A DNA stretch of 64,000 nucleotides from Escherichia phage S143_2, in the sequence record MZ189261.1; one strand, written 5' to 3'. Below the pieces are notes generated by a model. The model searched no databases. It worked only from the letters and a program-made list of their open reading frames with translations, and was not told where the DNA came from. Positions within the stretch are counted from its first letter, which is position 1, and each line of letters opens with the position of its first letter. Of the stretch, positions 25,244-29,890 are shown in pieces. The position numbers and the translations under genes were made by a program.

Positions 25244-25546
25244 TTAGATAGATGTAGGCTCTAATTTTATTTTCATGAACTCGGCAAATTGTCTGGCAGT
25301 TTTTATGCCTTGTTCATGACATTCAAATGCATCATCACAGGGGCTATTTTTGTAATGCTTTGCCATATACTTATAGAATTTTTCAGAATTCTCTACATTT
25401 TGAATTTCAAACAAAGTATATACGTTTTTAATCCCTGATTCCATAAAGTTATCAAAATATGGGTCGGTGTACGCAGTACCAACGATAGGAGTTGTTGCTG
25501 CAAAAAACCCCAGCATCGCCATGACAGCTATCGCTCTTAAGGCCAT
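25244..25546 (-). CDS. rI: lysis inhibition regulator rI (periplasmic antiholin-binding)
   Basis: 100 aa; signal-anchor then DPYFDNFMESGIKNVYTLFE... closely resembles T4 RI. Confidence 0.8.
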   Translation of the reverse strand: MALRAIAVMAMLGFFAATTPIVGTAYTDPYFDNFMESGIKNVYTLFEIQNVENSEKFYKYMAKHYKNSPCDDAFECHEQGIKTARQFAEFMKIKLEPTSI

Positions 25547-26773: not shown

Positions 26774-26976
26774 TATTCTTCTACATGTTGTTTACGACCT
26801 TTCTTATCAATAAAGGTATATTCAACGAATGTTCCGATGTAGTCTTTATCTACATCATGTGGACTATTAATTGGACATTTAGTACGACAAATGCGTTCCC
26901 ATTGACGAATAATTACTGCTTTATTTTTAGGATCAAACGGATGTGGGTAATGCACATTCATAATAATGGTTCCCAA
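26749..26976 (-). CDS. hypothetical protein
   Basis: 75-aa ORF. Confidence 0.4.
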   Translation of the reverse strand: MGTIIMNVHYPHPFDPKNKAVIIRQWERICRTKCPINSPHDVDKDYIGTFVEYTFIDKKGRKQHVEEYCLKVTWL

Positions 26977-27455
26977 TCAACAATCACAATTTCTAGTTTA
27001 GTGGAATATGTATCAAGAATTTCTTCAATGATATCCCAGTTTCCACCACCTATACCTGCACCAATTCTTGGCATATAAATTACAGGCTTTGTTATCTTAT
27101 TTTTTCCGAATTCATTTAATTCTATTATACAATTCGTTAAAGCATAGTACTCAAAATTAGGTCCCGGCTCAAACTGTGTATAAAGATTAAAGCAATAAGC
27201 TTTATGGGTCTTAAAATATTTTTCATAAACCGAATAAGTCCCGAGTTTAGACTCGTCTCCGAATTCGGTTTGAAGTTTATCGGCTTCTAGAATTTTTGGA
27301 TAAGCCTTTGCTAATTGTCCTGCCACACCGGCGCCCATTGTATGAAAACAATTACACCCATGAGCTATATTATTACCTTTAGAAAACAGGGCGACAATAT
27401 CGCCCTTGATATAGTTTTTAATCACTTGCTGCAAGTCCTCTAGTATAAGAGTCAA
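26958..27455 (-). CDS. macro-domain protein (ADP-ribose binding/hydrolase fold)
   Basis: 165 aa; GDIVALFSKGNNIAHGCNC...MGAGVAGQLAKA resembles macro-domain Gly-rich diphosphate-binding loop (compare viral X-domain GGGVAGAL). Confidence 0.55.
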   Translation of the reverse strand: MTLILEDLQQVIKNYIKGDIVALFSKGNNIAHGCNCFHTMGAGVAGQLAKAYPKILEADKLQTEFGDESKLGTYSVYEKYFKTHKAYCFNLYTQFEPGPNFEYYALTNCIIELNEFGKNKITKPVIYMPRIGAGIGGGNWDIIEEILDTYSTKLEIVIVDWEPLL

Positions 27456-27765
27456 CTAGACGGTCCACCATAGAATTGCATGCTGCCTTATCTTTAGGTT
27501 CCGCCACCGAGCATTCTAATATTTGCCATTTTTTATAGTATCTTTTAATTAAGGTAGACGCCTTGAACCTACTAGACGCCCCATCTTTTTCTCCGTCTTT
27601 ATACGCATATAACAATTTTTGTGAAAAATCTACTTTACACTCTTGACTTTTACCACAATAATCAGACGCCGTTCTGTTTGTATACTCCGTTACATCAGTA
27701 TATGTAGTATTAGCAAGAGCGCTAAATGAAACCAAGCCAACTATTAAAGCCAACATTTTGGTCAT
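27418..27765 (-). CDS. secreted Cys-containing protein (115 aa; occupies T4 vs position)
   Basis: N-terminal signal peptide MTKMLALIVGLVSFSALA; 5 Cys. Confidence 0.5.
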   Translation of the reverse strand: MTKMLALIVGLVSFSALANTTYTDVTEYTNRTASDYCGKSQECKVDFSQKLLYAYKDGEKDGASSRFKASTLIKRYYKKWQILECSVAEPKDKAACNSMVDRLVDSYTRGLAASD

Positions 27766-28304
27766 TCTTTTATTTCCAGTAGTTTATTTGATTTAAGGTA
27801 ATTAGCCTTTTCTAGGACTTCAGAAGCATATTTACTTCCAGCACTTGTCTTCCATCCCGCATTATATGAGGATATAGCTTTTCTTATATCCCCGTTATGT
27901 ATATTTAACCAATAAGAAAATTCGATATAAGCCCATCTGGCTGAATTAGACCGCTTAGATAGCATTTTCTTAATTTGGGCATCAGTCATATTATAACCAA
28001 GCTGGTTAATTCTTGCCCTCATTGTTGGTAGATAATTTTGGAACATTCCATACGCATGGTGACCTTTCTTATTTTTAAGATTAATACCGGCAGATGATTC
28101 CTGCCATAGTATTGCGGCCATTATGTATCCAAGTCCTTTCTTATGCATATTTTCATGCGTTTTAAATTTTCCATCCTTAGAAAACTGTTCCCCAAACTGA
28201 TAAGCATAATTCAAGTTATCGAGTTGGACATTACTAAAAGTATGCTCGGAGCTATGTGCTGATAACGAAAGAGCAAATAGACCAGCGAGTAGTGCTTTTC
28301 TCAT
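27762..28304 (-). CDS. secreted lytic transglycosylase (SLT domain)
   Basis: 180 aa; signal peptide; SLT family motifs ILWQESSAG (catalytic ES), GMFQ, SYNAGW. Confidence 0.6.
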   Translation of the reverse strand: MRKALLAGLFALSLSAHSSEHTFSNVQLDNLNYAYQFGEQFSKDGKFKTHENMHKKGLGYIMAAILWQESSAGINLKNKKGHHAYGMFQNYLPTMRARINQLGYNMTDAQIKKMLSKRSNSARWAYIEFSYWLNIHNGDIRKAISSYNAGWKTSAGSKYASEVLEKANYLKSNKLLEIKE

Positions 28305-28312
28305 GTTTACCT

Positions 28313-28771
28313 CTAGATTTTAATCACTGCTTTAGAAGCTTTTCCTGGTAGTCGTTTACTGTTAATAATAGCCATTCTGCATTGAAGAGTCTTCATTTTG
28401 AATGCTGGATTTTCGCGACAAACTGTAAGTCCTAACCAAAGATTTCCATCAGTTATTTCTAAACGGCCTGGACGATATTCGACACCTTCGACAAAATCTT
28501 CATCAACATCTGGACGTGCCGGCATTGATAAAAATTCTGCAACTTCTTTAACATGATTTTTTACTTTACGAAATAATTCAAAAACGTAGTTCTCATCTAT
28601 TTCTCTCTGGATAGCACGATCTAAGAGATGTTGAGAATACTTGATATGAAAGCCTGGTAGTCCAAGAGACTTTGCAGCATCTTTTATACCGGCATTTATT
28701 TTGCGGAACTCCGTTTCAAAGATTCGACGGAGTTTATTACGGCGGATAAAAACGTCAGAATTGATAGTCAT
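28313..28771 (-). CDS. regB: RegB endoribonuclease
   Basis: 152 aa; MTINSDVFIRRNKLRR...KYSQHLLDRAIQREIDENYVFELF...GRLEITDGNLWLG matches T4 RegB. Confidence 0.85.
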   Translation of the reverse strand: MTINSDVFIRRNKLRRIFETEFRKINAGIKDAAKSLGLPGFHIKYSQHLLDRAIQREIDENYVFELFRKVKNHVKEVAEFLSMPARPDVDEDFVEGVEYRPGRLEITDGNLWLGLTVCRENPAFKMKTLQCRMAIINSKRLPGKASKAVIKI

Positions 28772-29314: not shown

Positions 29315-29528
29315 AAGGAATTTCCTCATCGGTGGCAAGGTCATATTCGACCAATTGGATAGGCTCATTAATACCATATCCGCGTACAGTGATATCGGTT
29401 GACGGATATTTTCCAGTAATATCACCCGTTCTAAATGCTTCAATGAATGATTGCTCGCCTGAGCAACTAAACCAGGCGGCAAAACATTTTAAAACATCTT
29501 CAGACCCTTCTATAATCAATTTAGCCAT
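29304..29528 (-). CDS. hypothetical protein
   Basis: 74-aa ORF. Confidence 0.4.
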   Translation of the reverse strand: MAKLIIEGSEDVLKCFAAWFSCSGEQSFIEAFRTGDITGKYPSTDITVRGYGINEPIQLVEYDLATDEEIPYVD

Positions 29529-29890
29529 TATAGACTCTCAGTAAAGGTACGAGCTATAACGTCGCGCTGCTGTTCTGGAGTCAGAGAGTTAAAGCGAACT
29601 GCATAACCGGATACACGGATGGTCAGCTGCGGATATTTTTCTGGATGCTTAACTGCATCTTCCAGAATTTCACGACGCAGAACGTTAACGTTCAGGTGTT
29701 GACCACCTTCAATTTTAACTTTAGGTTGATGTTCAATTTCAATTTCACGGGCATTCAAACCGTAGAAAATTTCCGGGTCTACAATAGCGTCTTCTTTAAA
29801 AGTCTTAGAGACGATAATCCGGGCTTGAGTACCGTCTTCAAAATAAATAGTGCCTTTATGTGCACCTTCAAGAATTTGATATGCTTTCAT
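29528..29890 (-). CDS. autonomous glycyl radical cofactor (GrcA/YfiD-like)
   Basis: 120 aa; C-terminal ~60 aa ([60 protein letters not shown]) nearly identical to E. coli GrcA glycyl-radical domain. Confidence 0.85.

Follow-up and report, generated by a model that had tools for sequence, protein, structure and literature searches.

We analysed a 64,000-nucleotide stretch of Escherichia phage S143_2 (sequence record MZ189261.1; hereafter the window), whose minus strand carries two overlapping genes that are the Mosigvirus orthologues of phage T4 vs.1 and vs. The explanation that best fits the evidence overall, to which we would give slightly less than an even chance, is that Vs.1 is an exported enzyme and that Vs acts with it in the same periplasmic process. 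Such a periplasmic partnership is plausible, and the export signature, second branch and Vs.1 dependence of the Vs family together appear to make the textbook annotation of vs, as modifying valyl-tRNA synthetase (ValRS), questionable. The features concerned are the following.

27762..28304, minus strand: vs.1 orthologue, encoding a 180-residue, predicted exported GH23/SLT-like (lytic-transglycosylase-like) protein; based on the open reading frame (ORF), phrog_600, a Pfam SLT score of 20.0 bits, and an AlphaFold2 (AF2) model searched with Foldseek.
27762..27765, minus strand: ATGA overlap of the vs start and the vs.1 stop; seen in the sequence, with a gap of -8 to +7 nt in 56/75 related loci.
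27418..27765, minus strand: vs orthologue, encoding a 115-residue precursor of a predicted exported four-helix, four-cysteine protein annotated 'valyl-tRNA synthetase modifier'; based on phrog_1256, identity to T4 Vs, and PF26829.

In the mechanism that we propose, both proteins would carry a cleavable signal peptide at the N-terminus and pass into the periplasm of the infected cell. Vs.1 would most likely act there as a lytic transglycosylase, cleaving the glycan strands of peptidoglycan with one catalytic glutamate, E69. Vs would mature to an ~11-kDa four-helix bundle of two hairpins, each turn probably stapled by a disulfide, and would most likely serve as a putative Vs.1-binding partner that the enzyme requires or that modulates or targets it, and not as a pure antidote to a toxic enzyme. 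The resulting local remodelling of the wall may help T-even growth, particularly in poor medium.

The identity of the two genes is clear. The window is RB69-like Mosigvirus DNA, and this region is 98-99% identical to that of ~150 Mosigvirus phages, the closest being Shigella phage SHSML-52-1 (98.8% identity). The 180-residue protein (ORF 28304..27762) matches phrog_600 over residues 1-178 of 180 (E=1.8e-67) and is ~84% identical to the T4-type Vs.1 cluster (P0006), and the 115-residue protein (ORF 27765..27418) gives a full-length match to phrog_1256 (E=3e-35; 'valyl tRNA synthetase modifier'), shows 68% identity to T4 Vs, and has homologues on which PF26829 is found. A search of NCBIfam gave no match. 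The profile matches show that the genes are real, and the possibility that the pair is a chance ORF artefact was rejected. The start of vs overlaps the stop of vs.1 by 4 nt, and the gene order in the window (regB, the 180-residue ORF, the 115-residue ORF, a macro-domain gene, tk.3/2/1, tk) is that of T4 (regB, vs.1, vs, tk.4, tk). The position between regB and vs is common to the window, SHSML-52-1, T4, VR26, Potts1 and 005, and regB-vs.1-vs-tk.4 is a block of tightly packed same-strand genes, which are early genes in T4. The pair itself is an ordinary one, consisting of conserved, named, non-essential T-even early genes, and both the gene pair and its SLT similarity are already known. A preliminary description of this DNA, whose coordinates for the two ORFs agree exactly with ours, had proposed an exported pair, largely correctly; it had not recognised the genes as T4 vs.1 and vs, and so missed both the ValRS-modifier annotation and the published SLT similarity.

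Signal peptides were judged heuristically, from their n-, h- and c-regions, hydropathy, a small-x-small cleavage site, and conservation within the family. By these measures both proteins of the window are predicted to be exported.

28251..28304, minus strand: Vs.1 signal peptide, residues 1-18 MRKALLAGLFALSLSAHS, predicted cleavage AHS/S; based on n/h/c regions, low pLDDT, and relatives.
27712..27765, minus strand: Vs signal peptide, residues 1-18 MTKMLALIVGLVSFSALA, predicted cleavage ALA/N; based on hydropathy and homologues.

The N-termini of Vs.1 (MRK-ALLAGLFALSLS-AHS/S) and Vs (MTK-MLALIVGLVSFS-ALA/N) each combine a positive n-region, an h-region and a predicted cleavage site. Among 20 neighbouring genes, only vs, vs.1 and rI, whose product is a known periplasmic protein, encode a hydrophobic N-terminal core (best 9-residue Kyte-Doolittle means of 3.07, 2.56 and 2.48, respectively, with the rest at or below 2.09). 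The feature is conserved across both families, in support of the clear signal peptides that had been claimed for both proteins: nearly all of the 75 Vs.1 relatives that we collected from IMG/VR have a hydrophobic N-terminus consistent with a signal peptide, and an N-terminus of n/h/c shape with a small-x-small site was found in 38 Vs homologues and in all 64 IMG/VR Vs ORFs, despite the drift of their sequences. In 5 of these 64 (a Karamvirus-like clade, LSGC) the N-terminus is a canonical lipobox, MKKLFVLLVV(F/V)ALSGC. Two GenBank entries that apparently lack a signal, ZZ1p0140 of Acinetobacter phage ZZ1 (L006:2450-2779) and gp095 of Morganella phage MP1 (L009:2510-2809), are annotated from internal ATGs, and in-frame upstream ATGs beside the vs.1 stop restore predicted signal peptides in both (MKLINIIAVFCMIISMPVYA/Q and MRLLALLFVPFLCFA/N). 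A signal peptide or lipobox was present in each of the ~100 Vs-family members examined. The idea that Vs is anchored in the membrane with its body in the cytoplasm was rejected, since its positive-inside N-terminus argues against it. Together with four conserved cysteines, these export signals consistently, if heuristically, mark Vs as the kind of protein that would fold in an oxidising compartment, the alternative for the cysteines being a metal site.

Further proteins with export signals were observed near vs. In phages PKO111 (L008:2809-3201), ZZ1 (L006:2776-3207) and MP1 (L009:2806-3252), a further ~130-145-residue signal-peptide protein is encoded after vs, and in Aeromonas phages without vs (L007:2863-3303) a 146-residue lipobox (YGC) protein precedes tk.4; the exported module may thus have more members in some lineages.

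The Vs protein of the window has four cysteines, all in its mature part, and not the five first ascribed to it; the T4 protein does have a fifth, located within its signal peptide.

27421..27711, minus strand: mature Vs, 97 residues, 11.0 kDa, pI 8.3; based on AF2 and conservation.
27655-27657, 27637-27639, 27511-27513 and 27478-27480, minus strand: Vs cysteine codons (C37, C43, C85 and C96); seen in the sequence.

We collected the family stepwise, through a word-indexed search that returned few relatives and then a profile search that returned 44 members, and aligned the 38 that were full-length. In these type-A proteins the ~20 N-terminal residues are variable, and the invariant positions are Y28, R31, T32, D35-Y36-C37, C43, F47, K56-D57, C85 and C96, together with a C-terminal motif, S-M-V-x-R-x-x-D-x-Y-x-R-G-L. 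A second branch, very divergent and present in 411 further records, is represented by the small 'Vs' proteins that Klebsiella phage PKO111, Morganella phage MP1 and Acinetobacter phage ZZ1 encode after vs.1; hhalign shows it to be homologous to the first branch (probability 99.1%, E=1e-18). In the superfamily as a whole, the only fixed residues are M1, the cysteines, G58 and G110, and no full-length member, down to ~20% identity, has lost any of the four mature-domain cysteines. The AF2 model of mature Vs (predicted local distance difference test, pLDDT, 92.3; predicted TM-score, pTM, 0.83) has four helices, at residues 2-19, 23-46, 51-67 and 72-96, and places the cysteine pairs so that they bracket the turn between helices 1 and 2 and that between helices 3 and 4. 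On this model, disulfides C37-C43 and C85-C96 probably staple two helical hairpins. When made in the E. coli cytoplasm, full-length His-tagged T4 Vs is insoluble (PMC8076793).

An exhaustive HMMER search of mature Vs against 1.84 billion representatives gave 7 matches, one of them a junk repeat protein and the others fragments or relatives of Vs from phages, with no bacterial homologues; a search of PDB sequences gave nothing significant, and the fold showed no similarity to any solved structure, known lysozyme and transglycosylase inhibitors included. Decayed forms of the gene were seen in Escherichia phage vB_EcoM_005 (L005:2893-3150), where an internal deletion leaves 85 residues and removes the first cysteine pair, and at locus L043, where a 65-residue truncated form remains; Vs.1 is intact in both.

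Vs.1, for its part, is most likely a small single-domain enzyme of the GH23/SLT type with putative muralytic activity, a view based on motifs and a structural model.

28098..28100, minus strand: Glu69 codon (E-S motif; predicted catalytic acid); based on invariance in alignments.

Family-1 lytic transglycosylases (LTs) reportedly share the motifs E-S, G-L-M-Q and A-Y-N-x-G, as set out by Blackburn & Clarke 2001. The corresponding motifs in Vs.1 are E69-S70, G86-M-F-Q89 and Y147-N-A-G150. In an alignment of 82 sequences, E69, S71, G86, Q89, N90, Y147, N148 and G150 are invariant, and among the 75 IMG/VR relatives, which extend down to ~21% identity, E69 and G86 are each retained in 74/74 aligned sequences and Y-N-x-G in 75/75, so that the ES, GMFQ and YNAG motifs noted earlier in the 180-residue protein are not only present but nearly invariant. 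The AF2 model is confident (pLDDT 90, pTM 0.83), with low values at residues 1-20 (60-62) and values above 90 afterwards. The top 13 Foldseek matches in the PDB comprise a GH23 chitinase (Ralstonia), MltD and Slt70/LtgA, followed by phi6 P5 and T7 gp16, at a probability of 0.98-1.0 and TM-scores of 0.43-0.53. PDB sequence searches with the window protein and with a Vs.1 profile gave nothing significant. That T4 vs.1 marginally resembles SLT was in print by 2006 at the latest (Nolan 2006, PMC1524935). Relatives of Vs.1 were found in 2,060 phage records, some of them from lineages far removed from the T-even phages, so that Sec-exported SLT-like enzymes appear to be spread over many phage lineages. 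In several records the homologues are called 'endoribonuclease/RegB family' or 'C-type lysozyme/alpha-lactalbumin family protein', an instance of annotation drift.

The two genes are closely linked. Of the 75 IMG/VR loci with a Vs.1 relative, 64 also contain a Vs-family ORF, which adjoins vs.1 in 56. As a synteny control, regB adjoins vs.1 in 50/75 loci and tk.4 adjoins vs in 30/75, leaving the vs.1-vs junction as the most persistent, and Acinetobacter phages retain vs.1-vs though both regB and tk.4 are absent. The reverse test, for Vs without Vs.1, was made on type-A Vs loci only (n=27), and in 27/27 of them Vs.1 lies directly upstream; Vs without Vs.1 was never seen. Family members from phages of Acinetobacter, Shewanella and Pseudomonas are likewise accompanied by Vs.1 without exception. 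The adjacent pair of a predicted secreted SLT-type enzyme and a small cysteine-containing periplasmic protein, as originally proposed, is therefore strengthened by the comparative data. Most vs starts have their own Shine-Dalgarno-like element within the 3' end of vs.1, and strict translational coupling of vs to vs.1 is therefore not required.

Published transposon data for T4 offer a view of what the two genes do. We used the HIDEN-SEQ insertion counts of Extended Data Table 6 of a 2025 preprint (bioRxiv 10.1101/2025.11.20.689424), given as mean counts per TA site. Neither gene is essential, insertions being found at 30/32 TA sites of vs and 46/52 of vs.1. In liquid LB, however, mean counts were 26.6 for vs and 22.6 for vs.1, compared with 178.6 for regB, 289.6 for tk.4, 652 for vs.3 and 767 for tk.3, and a solid-LB reference library showed the same pattern (vs 103, vs.1 76, tk.4 259, regB 230, vs.3 634). 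In M9-glucose, vs fell further, to 5.0 (log2 fold change -2.19, adjusted p 0), making it the T4 gene most depleted relative to LB, a result confirmed with a delta-vs phage; vs.1 fell to 11.9 (log2 fold change -0.87, p 0.0055, adjusted 0.155), and the genes flanking the pair were unchanged or enriched, with none falling. Insertions in regB changed in the opposite direction to those in vs and vs.1 (log2 fold change +1.17, p 0.049), an enrichment that was not significant after adjustment (adjusted p 0.80; sheet S8 of the same preprint). Mutants of vs and vs.1 thus phenocopy each other in a fitness cost that the flanking genes do not share, unless polarity accounts for the likeness. The screen provides the first clear phenotype for vs, to which the comparative data add a concrete alternative interpretation, a periplasmic module with Vs.1.

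These counts bear directly on the idea, raised in the preliminary description, that the small partner is an inhibitor. Under this model Vs would be a dedicated, antitoxin-like inhibitor that silences a potentially lethal periplasmic Vs.1 until lysis. Loss of vs is indeed harmful, overlapping genes would favour coupled synthesis, and Spackle-gp5 and Ivy-MltB are precedents. Loss of a toxic enzyme, however, should be neutral or beneficial, whereas vs.1 insertions are depleted like those in vs; were they polar on vs, they would amount to a double knock-out, which should be harmless under the inhibitor model. Given this depletion, and given that Vs.1 occurs without Vs in many phages, a pure inhibitor or antitoxin role is disfavoured, and Vs lacks likeness to any solved structure, known inhibitors included. 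We consider this the least supported of the proposed roles and very improbable.

Several observations weigh against a shared periplasmic process of Vs and Vs.1. Adjacency alone is weak evidence for partnership, because gene order is generally conserved in T-even phages. In 8 loci (176-180-kb phages) vs lies 0.4-1.2 kb downstream of vs.1, behind unrelated genes, and 11/75 Vs.1 loci, those of Aeromonas phages and of the most divergent Vs.1 relatives, have no Vs. The low insertion counts of vs.1 could reflect polarity on the overlapping downstream vs. As for the enzyme, the window Vs.1 scores 20.0 bits (E=5e-4) against Pfam SLT (PF01464), below the gathering cutoff of 21.3, a miss that is marginal in that PF01464 is precomputed on many Vs.1 orthologues, and the Foldseek E-values are only ~0.02. 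The four cysteines of Vs lie at the same end of the modelled bundle and could chelate a metal instead of forming disulfides. Moreover, Vs is the fastest-evolving gene of the block: between locus L018 and the window, identity is 76% for Vs.1, 64% for RegB, 55% for Tk.4 and 26% for Vs. Two Vs types, A and B (~25% identical), alternate among phages (L010-L065) whose Vs.1 is 65-76% identical to that of the window, which suggests that in vs alone alleles have been replaced or have evolved in rapid bursts. Were Vs an obligate partner of a conserved enzyme, one would not expect it, as observed, to evolve much faster than Vs.1, with types that do not follow Vs.1 divergence.

Such variability would be natural if Vs were exported but acted without Vs.1, against a target that varies, for instance a component of the host envelope or another phage that competes or superinfects, much as T4 Spackle or Imm do. 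Its export signals and cysteines, the distribution of the A and B alleles independently of Vs.1 similarity, the loci in which vs is detached, and the weak BFVD fold matches of Vs to phage 'lipoproteins', after its own family, all agree with this explanation. Against it stand the persistence of the vs.1-vs junction, with Vs never found in the absence of Vs.1, and the fitness cost common to insertions in vs and in vs.1 when a single phage infects a laboratory strain; because no competitor phage was added in that assay, competition is an unlikely explanation of the cost. An independent action of Vs has, in our estimate, only a small chance of being correct.

The annotation of vs itself presents a more direct conflict. 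In the classical studies of Neidhardt & Earhart 1966, Marchin, Comer & Neidhardt 1972, McClain et al. 1975, Mueller & Marchin 1977 and Marchin 1980, T4 is said to add a ~10-kDa peptide, tau, to the cytoplasmic ValRS of its host, and vs mutants, mapped between rI and e, reportedly abolish this modification and have in vivo effects on the growth of valS(ts) hosts. This body of work also counts against a periplasmic Vs. On the canonical account, Vs is tau and binds and stabilises the cytoplasmic host ValRS, its position merely follows the conserved T-even order, and its N-terminus is not used for export, or only by a fraction of the protein. The annotation stands in T4, in hundreds of records and in phrog_1256. 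The defect of T4 delta-vs is specific to minimal medium, where aminoacylation could be limiting, the weaker effect of vs.1 in M9 is what partial polarity on vs would give, and tk.4, which encodes a cytoplasmic macro-domain protein, is also syntenic, so that synteny does not imply shared function.

The features of the Vs family, however, are by prediction not those of a cytoplasmic protein, given the Sec signal or lipobox in all members and the four cysteines retained at ~20% identity; the positive-inside N-terminus would put the body of Vs outside the cytoplasm. Its very fast divergence, with two types among coliphages that share one highly conserved ValRS, and its occurrence in phages of Acinetobacter, Shewanella and Pseudomonas, always alongside Vs.1, are likewise hard to reconcile with the canonical account. 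Even the reported mass of tau fits the processed protein, being nearer to the predicted mature form of T4 Vs (11.05 kDa) than to its precursor (13.06 kDa); if tau is the vs product it would have had to cross the membrane, as signal peptidase acts on the periplasmic side. Among the papers available we found none that shows how tau was tied to the vs ORF or that remarks on the Vs signal peptide. The canonical account as it stands seems to us unlikely.

Either the assignment lacks precision, or some of the Vs remains cytoplasmic, or two activities coexist. We tentatively propose, at clearly less than an even chance, that the ORF called vs in T4 and in over a thousand T-even-like genomes is not, or not primarily, a cytoplasmic ValRS modifier, and that its product would be exported, disulfide-stapled, lipid-anchored in some phages, and active in the periplasm with Vs.1. 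If so, tau would be encoded elsewhere, or the association with ValRS would come from a non-exported fraction or form after cell breakage, and the minimal-medium defect of T4 delta-vs would be a phenotype of the envelope and not of translation. The label 'valyl-tRNA synthetase modifier' is carried by more than 1,200 phage records, and every family member looks exported; a 50-year-old assignment may thus be wrong or incomplete, or may hide a dual localisation. In the searchable literature we found no discussion of the uniform export signature of the Vs family (lipoprotein variants included), of the breadth of its second branch, or of its strict dependence on Vs.1. As a separate matter of annotation drift, Vs is often called 'valyl-tRNA synthetase', that is, the enzyme itself.

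The pair can be compared with several known systems. T4 Vs.1 (NP_049725; phrog_600) is an orthologue of the window protein with the same length, regB-vs position, signal peptide and SLT-like motifs, and shows no difference of substance. T4 Vs (NP_049724; phrog_1256; PF26829) likewise shares its length, four mature-domain cysteines and a C-terminal motif, C-x-SMVDRLVDSY-x-RGL, with its window counterpart; apart from its extra cysteine in the signal peptide, the difference lies in an annotated function that is cytoplasmic, whereas the family features are those of an exported protein. With the family-1 LTs of GH23 (Slt70, MltD, phi6 P5 and the SLT domain of T7 gp16), Vs.1 appears to share a lysozyme-like helical fold, the glutamate of E-S, G-x-x-Q and A-Y-N-x-G, and it is very divergent from them (a sub-threshold Pfam match, no significant PDB sequence match, TM ~0.45-0.53). 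Among the same LTs, the specialised ones of type III and type IV secretion systems (EtgA, VirB1) are small, single-domain and Sec-exported, as Vs.1 is predicted to be; as far as is known, Vs.1 belongs to no virion or secretion machine.

Spackle (Sp), which acts on gp5 lysozyme, and Ivy, which acts on MltB, are periplasmic protein inhibitors of muramidases and transglycosylases. As proposed for Vs, they are small phage- or host-encoded periplasmic proteins with a signal peptide, paired with a peptidoglycan-cleaving enzyme, and Spackle is also small and helical. They have no detectable sequence or fold relationship to Vs, and the T4 transposon data are unlike those expected of a pure inhibitor; Spackle, moreover, targets the enzyme of an incoming phage and not a co-expressed one. 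The T4 antiholin RI is periplasmic, has an N-terminal signal-anchor-release (SAR) domain and acts on the holin T. Its gene lies ~2 kb from the vs pair (window 25244-25546), and RI is, as predicted for Vs, a small exported T-even early protein; no homology between them was found, and the short h-region and A-x-A site of Vs are typical of a cleaved signal and not of a SAR anchor.

The pair is flanked in the window by two genes on the same strand.

28313..28771, minus strand: regB endoribonuclease, directly upstream of vs.1 on the coding strand; based on Pfam REGB_T4 (E=8.8e-69).
26958..27425, minus strand: tk.4 macro-domain gene, directly downstream of vs on the coding strand, its start overlapping the end of vs; based on Pfam Macro (E=1.2e-6) and the SHSML-52-1 annotation.

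T4 tk.4, of which the window macro-domain gene is the orthologue, has recently been given the name AdfM, for an anti-DarT2 factor (bioRxiv 10.1101/2025.11.20.689424). Distant phages that have no vs (L079, L083) carry a macro-domain gene immediately after the Vs.1-like one. A terminator-like hairpin (27388-27406, minus strand) lies immediately beyond the vs stop codon, within the opening codons of tk.4, with an 8-bp stem of which 5 pairs are G-C, followed by a T-run; a promoter and terminator scan did no better than chance (2 terminator-like sites against 1.7 expected), and the hairpin may mean nothing. Farther away, the rI orthologue (25244-25546, minus strand) has a hydrophobic N-terminus, as in T4 RI, and the vs.6 orthologue (29528-29890, minus strand) encodes a GrcA-like autonomous glycyl-radical cofactor (Pfam Gly_radical, E=1.8e-17).

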